DNA of 64,000 nucleotides from an uncultured SAR86 cluster bacterium. GTDB taxonomy: Bacteria; Pseudomonadota; Gammaproteobacteria; Magnimaribacterales; AG-339-G14. This document shows, in pieces, positions 39,409-46,784 of this stretch. Numbering within the stretch: position 1 is the first letter of the stretch; every line of letters starts with the position of its first letter. The DNA lies in contig CACELJ010000001.1 of assembly GCA_902560275.1 (NCBI GenBank), forward strand, positions 883 through 64,882, written 5' to 3'. A program made the position numbers and the translations under genes. Under the pieces are notes generated by a model. The model had not been told where the DNA came from and searched no databases. It worked only from the letters and a program-made list of their open reading frames with translations.

Positions 39409-40098
39409 TCAATCGTATGTTTTTGCTACTGATGTCATATTCAATCTTACTAAAGATCTAAAATTATCAGCTCTAGTTAAAAACTTTGCATACGCTTTAT
39501 TAGGAGCAGGATTATTTACAGACTCCATTGCTGTCGCAAGGTCTGGATAACCACAATACGCCATATGCGTACCGTATTTTTCAGGATTAGTTCCAGGCCC
39601 GAAAGATGCGACTCCCCAAGAACTTGGACACTGACCATTTGAAGTTTGCTCTTCCATCAATTCTGTATAAGCTTTCACGTAAGCTGAAGGATCAGTAACA
39701 TTAAGTAAGAAGACAGTGAAAACCTGATCTTTCATTACATCTCCTCCTCCAACTACTGGAAATCCTAAAGCTTGATTTGTTTGCTCAGATATAGAACTCA
39801 TTGATTGAAAATATTTTCCCCAACCTGGGCAAGTTTGAACTTGGTTAGACCATTCAACATAATCTGCATTATTCTCATAAAAAACAACGTAAGTATGTGT
39901 TGTGTCATCATCTCCGTTTAAATTTTCAGCCATTAATCTAACTACAGTATCATTTGGACAATCTTTGGTTAATTGATCTGTAGCTTGAACTACTCCAATA
40001 GGATTTTCTGTTTTTATTCCAAAAAATCCAAAAAATGGTCCGTCTCCAGCAATTAAAGGTATGCTCAGAAAACTAATTAAAATTAATATTTTTTTCAT
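39409..40098 (-). CDS. secreted two-repeat protein, uncharacterised family, paralogue 1
   Basis: I prefer the start at Met13 (MKKILILISFLSIPLIAG) because AGGAGA lies upstream. It aligns with 41114..41842 and 45086..45811 (see findings). Confidence 0.6.
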   Translation of the reverse strand: MKKILILISFLSIPLIAGDGPFFGFFGIKTENPIGVVQATDQLTKDCPNDTVVRLMAENLNGDDDTTHTYVVFYENNADYVEWSNQVQTCPGWGKYFQSMSSISEQTNQALGFPVVGGGDVMKDQVFTVFLLNVTDPSAYVKAYTELMEEQTSNGQCPSSWGVASFGPGTNPEKYGTHMAYCGYPDLATAMESVNNPAPNKAYAKFLTRADNFRSLVRLNMTSVAKTYD

Positions 40099-40219
40099 AA
40101 TATCTCCTATATTAACTTCACTAATATATAACATTAGTAATATTCATAAAATAGAATTAATGTAAATATTGTGCAAAATATTTAAAATATTAATTATTAA
40201 TTTTTAAAAGGGAGTGGTG

Positions 40220-41026
40220 ATGTCTGATCTATTAAAAAAAGAAAATTTGAAAGAGGGTGTTTCAATATTAACTCTCAATAGACCGGAAGTATTGAATAGC
40301 TTAAATAAAGAACTTATAGATGCTTTATTGGAGGCATTTGATGAAATCTATCACGATAATTCAATCAGGTCGGTAATTATTACTGGTGAAGGCAGAGGAT
40401 TTTGCAGTGGAGCTGACTTAGCAGGTGGTGGTTGGCCAAGTGACCCTAAATGGTCTCCGGGAGAGTCTACAGCTAATGCAATGGAGATAGGTTTTAATCC
40501 TTTAGTAAGAAAAATTGTTGAATGTCCAAAGCCTGTCGTCATTGCAATTAATGGAATATCTGCTGGAGGAGGAGTTGGGTTAGCCCTTTGTGGTGATTTG
40601 ATAATCGCATCTGAGTCTGCAAAATTTAAACTCGTTTTTGGTCCACAACTAGGAATTATTTCTGATGTCGGCGCATCTTGGCTAATTCCAAATTTACTTG
40701 GTAGAGCAAGAGCAAACGGAATGGCACTTTTAGGTGAAGACATAGACTCAAATAAAGCTTTAAATTGGGGATTGGTTTGGGAAGTTTTTCCAGATAATGA
40801 GTTAAAAGAAAAGGCTATAGAGTACGCAATTCAATTAGCTAATGGATCTATTACAGGGTTAAAAGCTATTGTCAGGGCTCATGATAATGCTCTTAAAAAC
40901 ACTCTTAATGAACAACTTGATTACGAAAGAGATACTCAACGAATCCTTTGTGATGGAGATGTATTTAAAGAAGGTGTAACTGCTTTTATTGAAAAAAGGA
41001 AACCAAATTTTAGAGACATAGAATAA
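40220..41026 (+). CDS. enoyl-CoA hydratase/isomerase (crotonase) family protein
   Basis: ITGEGRGFCSGADL oxyanion motif, INGISAGGGVGLAL, and C-terminal FIEKRKPNF. GGAG lies 5 nt before the ATG at 40220. Confidence 0.85.
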   Translation: MSDLLKKENLKEGVSILTLNRPEVLNSLNKELIDALLEAFDEIYHDNSIRSVIITGEGRGFCSGADLAGGGWPSDPKWSPGESTANAMEIGFNPLVRKIVECPKPVVIAINGISAGGGVGLALCGDLIIASESAKFKLVFGPQLGIISDVGASWLIPNLLGRARANGMALLGEDIDSNKALNWGLVWEVFPDNELKEKAIEYAIQLANGSITGLKAIVRAHDNALKNTLNEQLDYERDTQRILCDGDVFKEGVTAFIEKRKPNFRDIE

Positions 41027-41113
41027 GTTTAATAAACAATAAATTAATAATTTATTTTCCTCAAAGAAGAATAAATGATACATAATTAATTTTTAATATA
41101 GGAGATATTAATT

Positions 41114-41842
41114 ATGAAAAAACTATTAATTTTAGTTTCTTTGATTATCACTTCATATTCTCATGCTGCTCCAATTTGGGCAGAGTTTCAAATAGAAGTC
41201 GATGATCCAATAAAAGCAGCAAGTATTGCTGCTGCAACTGACAGATACATGAAAAGTGATTTTGTTAAAAAAAACTTTAATGGGTCTGTACACTTGAATG
41301 TATATGTATCTAATGGAGATAATCCAGCAACACATTCCTTAGTTTGGCTATTTCCAAGCATGACTGATGCATCTGTTTTTCAAACTAAATCATTAGATCC
41401 TTCAAATAGAGCTTCGCAAGAATTTTTTAGTGCTCTAAGTCAAAATTCTGAAGCAACTTCAGATTTAATGCATACCTTTGTCACTTCTTGGGGAAATGCC
41501 TCCAATAAAGACAGAGTTTGGGAGATTCACAATTTTTATGCCACTGATGCAGGAAAGGTTGTCAATCTTACCAATAAAATGATGGCTTCCATGGATGGGT
41601 TCCCAGGGCAGCTTGGTCTATCACAAAATACCTATGGAAATGGCGATACTTCTCACGCATTTACTGTTGGATTCGAATCTATTGAAGAAATGGAAGGTTG
41701 GCAAGATAAGTTAGCAACAGATCCGGTCTTTAATAAATGGCTTGTTGATATGGGTAAAGTTGTAGAATGGAAGGGCTCTGAATTAGTGGTAAATGCTGCT
41801 GTTTATGACTCTGCATTAACTATAGAAGAATTCGTTCAATAA
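41114..41842 (+). CDS. secreted two-repeat protein, uncharacterised family, paralogue 2
   Basis: Signal peptide MKKLLILVSLIITSYSHA. It has the same length and repeat pattern as paralogues 1 and 3. Confidence 0.6.
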   Translation: MKKLLILVSLIITSYSHAAPIWAEFQIEVDDPIKAASIAAATDRYMKSDFVKKNFNGSVHLNVYVSNGDNPATHSLVWLFPSMTDASVFQTKSLDPSNRASQEFFSALSQNSEATSDLMHTFVTSWGNASNKDRVWEIHNFYATDAGKVVNLTNKMMASMDGFPGQLGLSQNTYGNGDTSHAFTVGFESIEEMEGWQDKLATDPVFNKWLVDMGKVVEWKGSELVVNAAVYDSALTIEEFVQ

Positions 41843-41853
41843 GATCAGCTTAT

Positions 41854-41885
41854 AAAAATACCCGTTTTTGACGGGTATTTTTTTT
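41854..41885. terminator. bidirectional rho-independent terminator
   Basis: AAAAATACCCG (41854-41864), N7, then CGGGTATTTTTTTT (41872-41885). Confidence 0.8.
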
Positions 41886-42621
41886 AATCGGACTTTTCCC
41901 AATGAAATTTAGGTAATTTTCTGACTCCTTTATCTATTTGTTCTGCCCAAATATCTGATAATTCCTTAAAGAAAGGAGAATCAAGTTTAAGTTGTTCTTG
42001 AAAATCCAAATTAATTTCATCTTTTTTAAAAACAACTAAATCAATAGGAGGTCCTACTGTCAGATCTGATCTCATCGTTGAGTCTAAAGAAAGTAGTGCG
42101 ACACGTGCTGCATCACCCAATGAAATATTTTGATAGATCATCCTATCGAGGATGGGTTTACCGTATTTAATTTCACCGATTTGTAAATAAGGCTGATCAT
42201 CTGACATATAAATAAAATTTCCTTCAGGATAAACAAGCAATAAATTTGGATCTTGTCCTTTTATTTGGCCACCAACTATAAAATAAGAACCAAGCAAAGC
42301 AGATCCTTGATTTAAATGTTCTTGGGCTTTAGATTGATACTCAACGTTTAGTTCACCGATATAAGTAGCAACTTCCTCTATATCTGCGCAGGTATTTAAG
42401 CTTTTTGCTGCATTTTTGGATTCTAAATCTTTTTCAATTCTGTGATAAACAGCTTGCGAGGTAGATAGATTTCCTGATGTTAAGATAACAAAAGCTCTGT
42501 CGCCCACATTAAATGTAAACATTTTTGAGTATGTGCTTATGTTATCAAGCCCAGCATTAGTTCTTGAATCAGAAGCAAATACTAATCCATCATTTATTTT
42601 TATTGCTAAACAATAGGTCAT
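41884..42621 (-). CDS. Anbu (ancestral beta-subunit) proteasome-type peptidase
   Basis: MTYCLAIKINDGLVFASDSRTNAG places Thr2 as the N-terminal nucleophile after Met removal. Length is 245 aa. It is adjacent to circularly permuted ATP-grasp and alpha-E genes. Confidence 0.8.
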   Translation of the reverse strand: MTYCLAIKINDGLVFASDSRTNAGLDNISTYSKMFTFNVGDRAFVILTSGNLSTSQAVYHRIEKDLESKNAAKSLNTCADIEEVATYIGELNVEYQSKAQEHLNQGSALLGSYFIVGGQIKGQDPNLLLVYPEGNFIYMSDDQPYLQIGEIKYGKPILDRMIYQNISLGDAARVALLSLDSTMRSDLTVGPPIDLVVFKKDEINLDFQEQLKLDSPFFKELSDIWAEQIDKGVRKLPKFHWEKSD

Positions 42622-42676
42622 TTTTCAATCTAAATGGATGTTATATTCAAAAAATAGGAGATAAGTAAATAACAAA

Positions 42677-44116
42677 ATGAAACTTTCATGGTCTAAATAT
42701 GAGCTATCTAAATCGTACGATGAGTATATTACACCAAAGCGCACTGTTAGAGGTCACTTAAGAAAAATTGGAAATTTTTTTGAATCTCTTTCATTTAATG
42801 ACCTACAAGAACTTGATAGCGCAACAAAATCTGCTATCAAATCAATGGGTATCAATTTTCGAGTTTATTCAGATGAAGGTTCTGAAGAACGAACATGGCC
42901 TTTAGATTTTATTCCTAGAATTATAAAAAAAAGTGAGTGGAACGTTGTCGAAAAGGGACTAAAACAAAGAACTAAAGCACTCAATTATTTTATTGAGGAT
43001 TGTTATAACGAACAAAGTTTTCTTAATTCCGGAATCATCAATAAATCTTTGATAACTAAATCTAAGTATTTTTTAAAATTTTGCAAAGGAACTAAATTAC
43101 CTAATAAATCTTGGGCTCATATTTCTGGCAGTGATCTCATAAAAGATATAAACGGAGACTTTCATGTTCTTGAAGATAACTTGAGGGTACCATCAGGAGT
43201 TTCTTATATGCTAGAAAACAGATACGTCATGAAGAGAGTTTTTCCTGATTTATTTTCACACTATGGTGTCTCAAAGATAGATGAATATCCTACAAAACTT
43301 TATGAATGTTTACTTGATGCATCTTTTTCGAAATTAAAAAATCCTGAAATTGTTCTCCTCACACCAGGTATTTATAACTCAGCATATTATGAACATTCAT
43401 ATTTAGCGCAACAAATGGGAATAGACCTAGTTCAAGGTTCGGATTTAATCGTTAAGAAAAATATAGTTTATAAAAAAACAATCGAGGGGCTTAAAAAGGT
43501 TGACGTAATTTATAGGAGGATTGATGACGACTATCTTGATCCAGAGGTAGGTAATCCATTTAGCGTTATAGGAGTGAAAGGATTGATTAGAGCTTGGAAA
43601 AGCAAAAATGTTTCTATTGTGAATGCACCAGGTTGCGGAATTGCTGACGATAAGGCCGTTTATTCTTTTGTTCCAGAAATGATCAATTTCTATCTGAAAG
43701 AAGAACCTATTCTGCCAAATATTAAAACTTTCATGCTTTCAAATAAAGAGGAAAGAGATTACGTATTTGAAAACATTAAACAAATGGTTACTAAACCTGT
43801 TGCTGAGTCAGGTGGATATGGAATTTCAATAGGTAAAAATTTAAATGAAAAAGAAATACTAAAATTAAAAAAATTACTAATGAAGGACCCTAAAAACTAT
43901 GTTGCTCAACCACTTATAGACTTATCAACATCGCCAACATTTAGAAGAGATTCTTTATTTCCAAGACATTTGGATTTAAGACCGTTTATTCTGTCTGGGA
44001 AGCAAACCTATGTGACAGTTGGTGGCCTTACCAGAGTTGCACTTAAAAGAGGTTCAACTGTCGTAAATTCCTCTCAAGGCGGAGGAAGCAAAGATACTTG
44101 GATAGTAGATGCATAA
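42677..44116 (+). CDS. circularly permuted type-2 ATP-grasp protein (COG2308-like)
   Basis: 479 aa. It pairs with a translationally coupled alpha-E gene and lies next to Anbu. It has ...VVNSSQGGGSKDTWI near the C-terminus. Confidence 0.75.
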   Translation: MKLSWSKYELSKSYDEYITPKRTVRGHLRKIGNFFESLSFNDLQELDSATKSAIKSMGINFRVYSDEGSEERTWPLDFIPRIIKKSEWNVVEKGLKQRTKALNYFIEDCYNEQSFLNSGIINKSLITKSKYFLKFCKGTKLPNKSWAHISGSDLIKDINGDFHVLEDNLRVPSGVSYMLENRYVMKRVFPDLFSHYGVSKIDEYPTKLYECLLDASFSKLKNPEIVLLTPGIYNSAYYEHSYLAQQMGIDLVQGSDLIVKKNIVYKKTIEGLKKVDVIYRRIDDDYLDPEVGNPFSVIGVKGLIRAWKSKNVSIVNAPGCGIADDKAVYSFVPEMINFYLKEEPILPNIKTFMLSNKEERDYVFENIKQMVTKPVAESGGYGISIGKNLNEKEILKLKKLLMKDPKNYVAQPLIDLSTSPTFRRDSLFPRHLDLRPFILSGKQTYVTVGGLTRVALKRGSTVVNSSQGGGSKDTWIVDA

Positions 44117-45027
44117 TGTTAAGTAGGAGTGCAAAACATTTATATTGGCTCGCCCGATACGTAGAAAGAGCTGAAAATATTGCAAGAATGATTGATGTAA
44201 ATCTTGAGCTAATTTTAGATTTTCCTGACGATCATTCTTTAAACTGGAAACCTTTAATTGATACTTTAGATATTAATGATTTATTTGAAAACAAATATAA
44301 AAAATATAACGAAAACAATGTTTTAAATTTTTTGTTTGAAGATAAAAAAAATCTAAGTTCTCTTAATAATTGCTTGGAGATGTCTAAATATAATATAGAA
44401 ACCATAAAAGATGATTTACCTAAAACTGCTAATATAAGTCTGAATCATCTTTACGATCATATTCTTGGTCAAAAAATCTCTAAAGTTCACCAACGAAAGA
44501 AACTGCAACATATAACAAATATAGTTTCAATGACTCAAAATTTTTTTGGCGCTATAAATGATAATCTCTCCAGAGGATATGAGTTTGAATTCATTAGATT
44601 AGGTAGATTTGTTGAGAGAACAGATATGATATCCAGAATTATTGATTGCTTATGTATTTCAAAAGGTTCTAAACAAACTCATGATTTTTCTACGATGGAA
44701 TGGATTAGCATGCTTTCAACACTCTCAGCACAAGATGCATTCAGGAAGGAATCTAAAGGAGAAGCGAATAGGGGAGAAGTGATAACTTTTTTACTTAAGA
44801 ATGACAGTTTTCCTAGATCAGTATTTCGAAGTCTAATCACTATTGAAGCATGTTTGGAAAATCTTCCTAAAAATACAAAGTTACTACAAATGATAAATAG
44901 GATAATCAATATTTCTGAGAGATCTAAATTATATAATTTTGATGATAGAAGACTACATTTATTCCTAGATAACCTTCAAAAAAATGTATCTAAAATTGAT
45001 TCTAAGATTCACACTACTTATTTTTAA
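44116..45027 (+). CDS. alpha-E domain protein (COG2307-like)
   Basis: MLSRSAKHLYWLARYVERAENIARMIDV is the typical alpha-E N-terminus. The ATG overlaps the upstream TAA (TAATG). Confidence 0.75.
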   Translation: MLSRSAKHLYWLARYVERAENIARMIDVNLELILDFPDDHSLNWKPLIDTLDINDLFENKYKKYNENNVLNFLFEDKKNLSSLNNCLEMSKYNIETIKDDLPKTANISLNHLYDHILGQKISKVHQRKKLQHITNIVSMTQNFFGAINDNLSRGYEFEFIRLGRFVERTDMISRIIDCLCISKGSKQTHDFSTMEWISMLSTLSAQDAFRKESKGEANRGEVITFLLKNDSFPRSVFRSLITIEACLENLPKNTKLLQMINRIINISERSKLYNFDDRRLHLFLDNLQKNVSKIDSKIHTTYF

Positions 45028-45085
45028 AAAGTATTAGAAATAAGTTTTTTTTTCGTCATAATCAATTAATAAAAGGAGAAAAAAA

Positions 45086-45811
45086 ATGAGAAAAATTTTA
45101 TTTTCAATATTGATTACTATTTTTTCAGTAAACATATTTTCAGATGATCATGGTATTAAACCTGGAAATGTTGTTGCTGAATTTCATTACTTTGATGTAA
45201 CCGATCCAATGTCTTTTGTAGCAACAGTTGATAAATTTGATGTATCTTCTTGTGCACAAGAGTGGAGAGAAAAATCAGGTGTAAATATTGGTCTTTATGC
45301 GCTTGGTGGCGGAAGTCATTCTCATCTTATACTCGTGGTTTACGATGATTTTGATCAAATGCAACTAGGGAGGTCTATTTTTGGAGCATGCCAAGAATCG
45401 GCTCAGATGATCAAAAGCATGGATACTAGTTCTAATTCTCACATGTATTATAACTTTGTAACAGAATTAGCTCTTGAATCAGGAGATTGGAGAACGGATA
45501 CAGTTTTTGCTAACGTCGACATAAAGGTTGAATCTGGAGAAGAGGCTAAATATTTGAAAGCTTGGGTAGATTTCATGGAGTCACAAGAAAGTGTAGGTTC
45601 TTTTGGAATTAACCGAATCCTCTTTGGAAACAAATACTACACTCATATGATCTATTTAGGTTCTAATTCCTTGAGTGAACTTACAAATTCCATGAAAACT
45701 GCATTTAGTTCGAGAGACTATCAAACTTATTTAAATAAAGTGGAAGATATTCGAACGAATGTTCAAACAAGAATGGCTCAATTTGTAAAAGCATATCCTA
45801 ACGAAAGATAA
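45086..45811 (+). CDS. secreted two-repeat protein, uncharacterised family, paralogue 3
   Basis: Signal peptide MRKILFSILITIFSVNIFS, with AAGGAGA upstream. It aligns with paralogues 1 and 2. Confidence 0.6.
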   Translation: MRKILFSILITIFSVNIFSDDHGIKPGNVVAEFHYFDVTDPMSFVATVDKFDVSSCAQEWREKSGVNIGLYALGGGSHSHLILVVYDDFDQMQLGRSIFGACQESAQMIKSMDTSSNSHMYYNFVTELALESGDWRTDTVFANVDIKVESGEEAKYLKAWVDFMESQESVGSFGINRILFGNKYYTHMIYLGSNSLSELTNSMKTAFSSRDYQTYLNKVEDIRTNVQTRMAQFVKAYPNER

Positions 45812-45824
45812 GGATAATATTAAT

Positions 45825-45856
45825 AAAAAATACCCGATTTATTCGGGTATTTTTTA
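45825..45856. terminator. bidirectional rho-independent terminator
   Basis: AAAAAATACCCG (45825-45836), N7, then CGGGTATTTTTT (45844-45855). Confidence 0.8.
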
Positions 45857-45866
45857 AATGAAACAC

Positions 45867-46784
45867 TTACAAAGATTCACTGAAAAGTGATTTTAGATTT
45901 TGATCTTCTTTTATCTTTGACTTTAAAATTTTTTTACCTTTATCCAATATTTCATGATCATAGTTGATGATTGAACTTCTAAAACTTTTTTTAGCTTTCA
46001 CCTTTTTGTAATAATCCTCAAGAAAAGGTTTATCTCTAAATAATATTTCGTCCCAGCCGACTTCTTCAATTCTATGAAGAATAACCGCCCAACTAATGTC
46101 TGCTAAGGTAAATGAATTATTGATAATCCAATCTTGTTCTTTGGTCTTTAAATGATTATTTAGTTCATGTAGGTGATTGTTAATATTCTTTAATGATCTT
46201 TTAATTAATCTTCTGATAGGAGAATTATTCGAAAAAGCTTTATATCCAAATATTTTAAGAATAATAAAAAGGAAAACCCTTATTTTTAAGGGATGATTTA
46301 TCAAACCAAAAAGAATCTTTTTGATATTTATATGCTTAATCATTGAAGCAAAAAGTGGAAACGTCAGAGCGCCTATACAATTTCCTGCATATGTATCTTG
46401 ATTTTCCATTGGATCTCCAACCATAGAAGACTTTTTTACCCAATAGTCCATTGAATTTTTATCTTTTTCATTAGCAGGAATTATAGAACTTGAAGTGGAT
46501 TCTTTAGTTAAATAGTAAATTTGTTCATGCGATTCATAAATTGGGTAACCCTCATGTAGTAAAACTGGGACAGTCGCACCGGGATTAATTTTTAAAAAAT
46601 TTTTAGAGGCAACTTGATACTTACCTGTTTCTATTAAATCAATATGTTCCTGATCATATTCTATTTCTAACTCTTCAAGACATAATCGAACTTTACGAGA
46701 ACAAAGCGAGAAGCAATTATGATAGAGAATCCATTTTTTATCTGTATCAATAACTTTAAAACTTTGTTTTCCTTCTCTAGCCAC
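45867..46784 (-). CDS. glutathione S-transferase-family protein (GDAP1-like, with internal hydrophobic insert)
   Basis: The thioredoxin-like N-domain has ILYHNCFSLCSRKVRLCLEE...GATVPVLLHEG.PIYESHEQIYYL. A hydrophobic stretch reads IRVFLFIILKIFGY. Confidence 0.65.
   Translation of the reverse strand: MAREGKQSFKVIDTDKKWILYHNCFSLCSRKVRLCLEELEIEYDQEHIDLIETGKYQVASKNFLKINPGATVPVLLHEGYPIYESHEQIYYLTKESTSSSIIPANEKDKNSMDYWVKKSSMVGDPMENQDTYAGNCIGALTFPLFASMIKHINIKKILFGLINHPLKIRVFLFIILKIFGYKAFSNNSPIRRLIKRSLKNINNHLHELNNHLKTKEQDWIINNSFTLADISWAVILHRIEEVGWDEILFRDKPFLEDYYKKVKAKKSFRSSIINYDHEILDKGKKILKSKIKEDQNLKSLFSESL

Follow-up and report, generated by a model that had tools for sequence, protein, structure and literature searches.

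The window analysed here, a 64,000 nucleotide (nt) stretch of DNA from an uncultured SAR86 cluster bacterium (GenBank assembly GCA_902560275.1, contig CACELJ010000001.1, positions 883 to 64,882), contains a gene for Anbu, a proteasome-beta-like N-terminal nucleophile (Ntn) peptidase, which lies divergently beside genes for a circularly permuted ATP-grasp (cpATP-grasp) amidoligase and an Alpha-E domain protein. We see roughly an even chance that these three genes are a complete and self-contained Anbu module, inherited vertically in a streamlined marine order (Magnimaribacterales), and that their products tag or ligate a substrate and then hydrolyse it. Anbu has been known since 2008 and is structurally solved, and published ideas about it lean on a transglutaminase. 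We know of no substrate, activator or role that has been established for Anbu. The system as such is already known; an abundant marine order has it in a three-gene form that holds genome-wide, a variant in composition for which no description was found in the literature searched. The three genes and the spacer are listed below.

41884-42621, minus strand: Anbu, Anbu-1 type, 245 amino acids (aa); starts MTYCLAIK, with Thr directly after the start Met
42622-42676, no strand: Anbu/ligase divergent spacer, 55 nt between start codons that face away from each other
42677-44116, plus strand: circularly permuted ATP-grasp amidoligase, COG2308 type, 479 aa
44116-45027, plus strand: Alpha-E domain protein, COG2307 type, PF04168, 303 aa

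All three open reading frames (ORFs) are intact and all three family assignments hold. In a profile search Anbu matched PF00227 (Proteasome, E 2e-9), and in a search of Protein Data Bank (PDB) sequences it matched the solved Anbu structures 5loy (1e-64), 5nyj (2e-58), 5nyf (8e-58) and 5lox (3e-53); the best of these, 5loy, is an Anbu-1 consensus design, and 5lox is the Pseudomonas aeruginosa Anbu. The ligase matched PF14403 (CP_ATPgrasp_2) with E 5e-148 and 493 bits, residues 80-455 covering profile positions 1-374 of 374, and PF04174 with E 3e-127. The Alpha-E protein covered positions 1-294 of 294 of PF04168 (E 1e-65). The TAA stop codon of the ligase gene (44114-44116) overlaps the Alpha-E ATG (44116-44118) in gcaTAATGtta, and the two genes are predicted to be translationally coupled through this TAATG. 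An earlier reading made from the DNA alone, referred to here as the sequence-only reading, had given the same layout, with Anbu on the minus strand and divergent over 55 nt, at exactly these positions. Its assignment of the three genes to the Anbu, ATP-grasp and Alpha-E families is borne out by PF00227, PF14403, PF04168 and the Anbu PDB chains, and the TAATG coupling that it had described corresponds to the overlap read at 44114-44118.

The catalytic residues of the peptidase are retained. In an alignment of 75 Anbu sequences D17 and K32 are invariant and T1 is found in 73. The S1 pocket of P. aeruginosa Anbu consists of T20, F30, T48, L52 and S55 (PMC5666114), and the Anbu-1 S1-pocket positions T20, Y30, T47, L51 and S54 are kept in all 14 sequences from the order; at position 30, Tyr instead of Phe is also what is seen most often in the class (Gammaproteobacteria). 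Relation to the solved structures, Thr1 without a propeptide, Asp17, Lys32 and the S1 pocket all place the predicted protein in the Anbu-1 subtype. Conservation extends to the partners, with 112 ligase positions at least 97 % conserved over 60 sequences and both E-R motifs of the Alpha-E protein (E17-R18 and E167-R168) at least 95 % conserved over 58 sequences. Both Anbu sequences fetched from genus g10 (L020:8569-9300 and L023:9053-9778) start with MSYC and thus have Ser in place of the nucleophile Thr1; they seem to be natural Thr1Ser variants among the proteasome-family peptidases.

No transglutaminase was found to accompany the trio. The genome from which the window comes (1.10 Mb in 43 contigs, 77.7 % complete) contains no match to PF01841 (Transglut_core). 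Anbu was found in 69 of 251 genomes of the order, none of which has a PF01841 match, and PF01841 is present in just two of the 251 (G008 and G493), both Anbu-negative. A transglutaminase protein taken from an Anbu operon with the textbook gene order (locus L044), and verified by Pfam, found no counterpart when used as query against 41 relatives, and PF13369 and PF13471 gave nothing above cut-offs in five good genomes of the order. The Anbu-positive genomes searched for accessories include single-contig ones that are 95-97 % complete. In G008, which lacks the Anbu trio, there is a 447-aa ORF (L013:1102-2445) with a weak Transglut_core match of 28 bits.

Other candidate accessories were also sought. 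In many relatives from the class, a protein combining a zinc ribbon with Peptidase_Mx (PF10005 and PF15887, E ~1e-100) is encoded beside Anbu or Alpha-E. PF15887 was above cut-off in none of 41 genomes of the order, the window's own included, and tblastn found no Peptidase_Mx match in the window. The sole PF00227 matches in the 41 genomes are Anbu, with no HslV among them, and 16 of these genomes have no proteasome-family gene at all. Bare trios also occur in other gammaproteobacteria, and in five of five such genomes a transglutaminase is encoded elsewhere; Peptidase_Mx is encoded elsewhere in two of five tested. According to a 2008 statement, there was no genome with Anbu that lacked a transglutaminase (PMC3235984). 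With no transglutaminase in its Anbu-positive genomes, as against five of five elsewhere, the order is, judged by its genome sequences and within the sensitivity of the profiles used, a real exception to this pairing. The sequence-only reading had remarked that the locus has no transglutaminase, and this extends to the rest of the genome and to the order; its proposal of a minimal three-gene Anbu system is supported by the absence of PF01841 (0/69) and of the operon-type protein (0/41).

Comparison of neighbourhoods, which the sequence-only reading had proposed, gave the same divergent trio throughout the order. The layout with Anbu on one strand and ligase followed by Alpha-E on the other was found in 13 of 13 loci fetched, from three families and with Anbu identities of 55-99 %, and the only genes common to all 13 neighbourhoods are Anbu, ligase and Alpha-E. 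Of 41 relatives, 25 have both the ligase gene and Anbu, and the other 16 have neither. Presence and absence of the two split within genera g1, g3, g4, g6 and g10. The single-contig genome G034 has lost exactly Anbu, ligase and Alpha-E from the g10 locus, the flanks of which meet there within ~25 bp. G008 belongs to the window's genus. There, 88 bp separate the enoyl-CoA hydratase (ECH) gene from the next gene, which codes for a secreted protein and lies downstream of Alpha-E in the window (paralogue 3), and the trio is missing together with paralogue 2, which lies beyond Anbu (L089:6579-8193 compared with window 40214-45811). The junction falls in a leader common to paralogues 2 and 3, and would be consistent with recombination between these direct repeats. 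On the other side, genes for a sulfatase and a GST are absent from G008 too. The apparent absence of the trio from G005 was dropped as evidence, as the contig stops inside the neighbouring paralogue.

These distributions bear on two other explanations. Anbu might be an independent general protease whose place beside the ligase is merely inherited gene order, as the class does have orphan Anbu genes without ligase neighbours (L043, L045, L050, L058, L062 and L083), no complex was obtained in vitro (PMC6376114), and Anbu is predicted to be on its own transcript here. However, co-presence with the ligase is perfect (25/25 present, 16/16 absent), the genes are deleted as a block in two families, and the L020 spacer has sigma-54 motifs in both directions, and we regard such independence as very unlikely. 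Alternatively, a fourth component of a family missed by the profiles could be encoded elsewhere and act in trans, for which the transglutaminases and Peptidase_Mx genes encoded elsewhere in other bare-trio gammaproteobacteria are a precedent. This we consider improbable, given that PF01841, PF13369, PF13471, PF15887 and the operon transglutaminase query all found nothing in the Anbu-positive genomes of the order that were searched, and that the deletion in G034 takes exactly three genes.

In the trees, the Anbu sequences of the order form one clade (100/100, starred), as do its ligases (99, starred), and in both trees the sequences of family f3 are set apart from those of f1 and f2 with starred support. 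Clades of this kind, with f3 separate in both, indicate that the trio was inherited vertically within the order and repeatedly lost, as far as can be judged from sequence comparison. An origin from a divergent locus of the Peptidase_Mx type was first suspected because the Anbu proteins of those loci are the most similar, and was rejected when the trees disagreed. In the Anbu tree the order groups weakly (91/81, unstarred) with transglutaminase-linked Anbu genes, and in the ligase tree it groups (93) with a bare trio, with compositional bias flagged in the trees. As the two differ, they do not settle the origin of the locus or which accessory was lost. Taken together, the data show a conserved and co-inherited unit of ligase, Alpha-E and Ntn peptidase that is linked to nitrogen sensing in close relatives, and point to purifying selection under which an order of abundant, genome-minimised marine bacteria keeps all three.

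The canonical operon has the order cpATP-grasp (COG2308), Alpha-E (COG2307), transglutaminase (COG1305) and Anbu, as in the PA1733 region of P. aeruginosa and in Yersinia bercovieri (PMC3235984, PMC5666114, PMC6376114). The window locus shares with it the three core families, an Anbu of the Anbu-1 type with Thr1, Asp17, Lys32 and the S1 pocket, and a cpATP-grasp gene that adjoins, and is tightly coupled to, the Alpha-E gene. It differs in lacking a transglutaminase, here as in its own genome and the Anbu-positive genomes of the order, and in that Anbu is divergent on the opposite strand and not the last of a co-directional set; no HslV is found alongside. The variant with Peptidase_Mx (PF10005 zinc ribbon and PF15887 zincin), found in other Gammaproteobacteria, shares the divergent layout, in eight loci with the peptidase alone and in two with both accessories, and these loci hold the Anbu proteins from outside the order that are most similar to that of the window (45-54 % identity). 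However, Peptidase_Mx was found in none of the 41 genomes of the order and the trees do not nest the order in that clade.

More distant systems were also compared. The Pup-proteasome of Actinobacteria, a functional analogy only, likewise pairs an ATP-dependent amide ligase with a proteasome-family Thr peptidase, but a Pup-like tag gene and an AAA+ unfoldase are both lacking here, and PafA is glutamine-synthetase-like, not a cpATP-grasp protein. Clusters of cpATP-grasp, Alpha-E and transglutaminase genes without Anbu, among which we take Rv2411c-Rv2409c of Mycobacterium tuberculosis to belong, share the pair of ligase and Alpha-E; they keep the transglutaminase without Anbu, whereas the window keeps Anbu without the transglutaminase. 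Rv2411c has been tested and made no GABA-trehalose (bioRxiv 10.64898/2026.04.15.718621). In the literature searched, no established function was found for the pair of cpATP-grasp and Alpha-E.

To place the layout in the class, 300 genomes were surveyed, of which 74 contained Anbu, and 60 loci with 61 Anbu genes were mapped. For 15 of the 61, Anbu and the ligase gene are neighbours in divergent orientation, and the strict textbook order was seen only in L044. With so many divergent and only one in textbook order, rearrangement of the Anbu locus is the norm in the class. The description of the window locus as rearranged, made in the sequence-only reading, is therefore right relative to the textbook operon, but the arrangement is not rare. 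Peptidase_Mx was found in the fetched stretch for 21 of the 61, a transglutaminase-like gene for 33, and neither for 14; what sets the order apart is that both types of accessory are lacking genome-wide. Some class loci have other compositions. L036 (5629-8949) and L037 (9825-13145) have an ORF of 1106 aa with a transglutaminase-like region between Peptidase_Mx and Anbu, so that both accessory types occur together. Parts of the locus are duplicated in L046 (in G141), where a transglutaminase and a single ligase/Alpha-E pair lie between two Anbu genes, and in L053 (in G303), where a single Anbu lies between two ligase/Alpha-E pairs.

Elements related to nitrogen were found in the spacers of sister lineages. 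In family f3, a glutamine riboswitch (RF01739, gathering score 35) lies upstream of the ligase gene and on its strand in both L025 (9583-9636, 66 bits) and L026 (9026-9079, 64.8 bits). In genus g10, the spacers of L020 and L023 have a sigma-54 motif, TGGC-N7-TTGCA, 11 nt upstream of the ligase gene. The sigma-54-type motifs are:

L020:9321-9336, minus strand: sigma-54-type motif; with the next, one of a pair facing both Anbu and ligase
L020:9486-9501, plus strand: sigma-54-type motif, second of the L020 pair
L023:9960-9975, plus strand: sigma-54-type motif

NtrC-like palindromes (GCACC-N5-AGTGCA) are found upstream of the g10 motifs. TGGC-N7-TTGCA is also found just upstream of the L055 ligase gene, and in L066 it separates Anbu from the transglutaminase gene. 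The rpoN gene is present in G031 and G029, where the matches extend across nearly the whole sigma-54 DNA-binding domain. In G016 just a 91-aa open frame (C1:833391-833573) matches this domain, and no rpoN match was found in G000 or G003, which suggests that rpoN has decayed or been lost in family f1. Induction of the Anbu operon under nitrogen limitation in Pseudomonas putida, as cited in PMC3235984 and PMC5666114, agrees with the riboswitch and sigma-54 motifs, and these elements would tie the trio to nitrogen status by way of its sister lineages.

In the activity that we propose, the cytoplasmic ligase and Alpha-E protein would use ATP to form an acyl-phosphate, and the ligase would then join an amino acid or short peptide to the carboxylate of a polypeptide (or peptide). 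The Anbu ring would hydrolyse the polypeptides or peptides so marked, and amino-acid nitrogen would be recycled. The system could do without the transglutaminase-like or zinc peptidases that accompany it as accessories in other bacteria, and in the window's own genus the spacer would have shrunk to 55 nt, leaving no nitrogen-sensing element in cis. In Y. bercovieri, the ATP-grasp protein that the operon encodes has been reported to release phosphate from ATP (PMC6376114).

Several points weigh against this proposal. We know of no substrate or product for any Anbu system, and present evidence cannot tell protein tagging from the synthesis of a free peptide or polymer. The genome is just 77.7 % complete, so that the absence of accessories rests on relatives, and a diverged accessory from an unrecognised family may exist. 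The window has no nitrogen-sensing element and its nitrogen link is borrowed from sister lineages, where the glutamine riboswitch may turn the ligase arm either on or off. Standard proteasome substrates were not hydrolysed by purified Anbu proteins, nor was a stable complex of Anbu with its operon partners detected (both PMC6376114).

Ligase and Alpha-E might instead make a free product and not a protein tag. This could be a small peptide or a polymer of amino acids, for instance one that stores nitrogen or a compound of the gamma-glutamyl type, with Anbu remobilising it by hydrolysis. Small amides and polymers are common products of ATP-grasp enzymes, the glutamine riboswitch and sigma-54 control of the sister lineages fit a nitrogen-store cycle, and the 55-nt and 58-nt gaps of the window have no room for a candidate tag gene. 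Peptide synthesis was also proposed by Iyer et al. 2009, to the extent that this is cited in PMC5666114. On the other hand, the active sites inside the Anbu ring and the fact that Anbu binds proteasome inhibitors favour polypeptide substrates (PMC5666114), and no such free product is known. We regard this as a possible but doubtful alternative. The proposal of a tag-or-ligate module also has a stronger form, in which the trio alone is an autonomous and nitrogen-controlled system for marking and degrading proteins, with Anbu the only proteasome-family degrader and no unfoldase, transglutaminase or zinc peptidase needed. If true, bacteria would have in it a minimal counterpart to tag-and-proteasome systems, and natural deletion strains in the ocean would show conditional dispensability, but we think it unlikely to hold in full. 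As transglutaminase, zinc peptidase and HslV were not found in the Anbu-carrying genomes searched, the order points to Anbu, ligase and Alpha-E as the functional core of the Anbu system, connected to nitrogen status by the riboswitch and sigma-54 elements of the sister lineages. The trio is a small gene set with low background for reconstitution, and knock-out genomes for comparison are available in nature.

The signals read around the three genes are as follows.

41854-41886, no strand: bidirectional intrinsic terminator between paralogue 2 and Anbu, AAAAATACCCG-TTTTTGA-CGGGTATTTTTTTT, a hairpin with runs of A and of T; it overlaps the stop codon of Anbu
42639-42647, plus strand: TGTTATATT element, extended -10-like; also seen in the g3 and g4 spacers
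42656-42660, no strand: AGGAG in the Anbu/ligase spacer, from reading of the sequence
45824-45856, no strand: bidirectional terminator after paralogue 3, a near-twin of 41854-41886 and the first terminator downstream of ligase and Alpha-E

The TGTTATATT element is a candidate promoter, and transcription probably starts from this sigma-70-type extended -10 in the spacer. The terminator at 41854-41886 was read directly from the sequence, and a consensus terminator scan gave no entry there. No terminator was seen in the 58-nt gap between Alpha-E and paralogue 3. From these signals we infer the transcription units of the locus. No Rfam match reached gathering score in 41000-46000, hence no riboswitch in the window's own spacer, and no sigma-54 motif TGGC-N7-TTGCA was found at the locus. 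Two sub-threshold Rfam matches (41818-41920 and 45815-45894) were rejected as RNA elements, as they correspond to the terminator hairpins.

The secreted proteins encoded beside the trio belong to a family of ~240 aa, of which the members in this genome are:

39409-40098, minus strand: secreted paralogue
41114-41842, plus strand: secreted paralogue 2, a flanking gene and not a component; lost with the trio in G008
45086-45811, plus strand: secreted paralogue 3, a flanking gene and not a component; starts 58 nt after Alpha-E
C6:23677-24366: fourth copy in the window's own genome, outside the window

The sequence-only reading had placed paralogue 3 in the slot of the transglutaminase and allowed that it might be a replaced fourth component. 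Paralogue 3 does follow Alpha-E on the same strand after 58 nt with no terminator between, and a paralogue adjoins Anbu in genus g3 too. However, the positional argument is weak, because in relatives with an accessory peptidase this is often found 3' of Anbu (the place of paralogue 2 here) or directly after Alpha-E. The paralogues have signal peptides, whereas the partners would be cytoplasmic. A family profile found them, in one to five copies, in 36 of 41 relatives, including all five genomes of the Anbu-free family f4, and did not find them in the Anbu-positive G037. Most copies are far from Anbu, a paralogue flanks Anbu in two genera only, and the genes are unlinked in genera g2, g4, g6, g9 and g10. 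A conserved leader of its own precedes paralogue 3, in which a -10-like box, CATAAT (45057-45062), is followed by AGGAG; paralogue 2 shares this leader. Paralogue 3 also survives the deletion of the trio in G008. For its unlinked spread, own leader, survival in G008 and export, paralogue 3 was dismissed as a partner of the trio, and that it or paralogue 2 took over the transglutaminase role is a claim to which we give hardly any credence. The family had no Pfam, NCBIfam or meaningful PDB match. The three 241-aa paralogues in the window have Sec-type signal peptides and identities of 23-26 % to the first of them, and two Cys and two His are conserved in the family.

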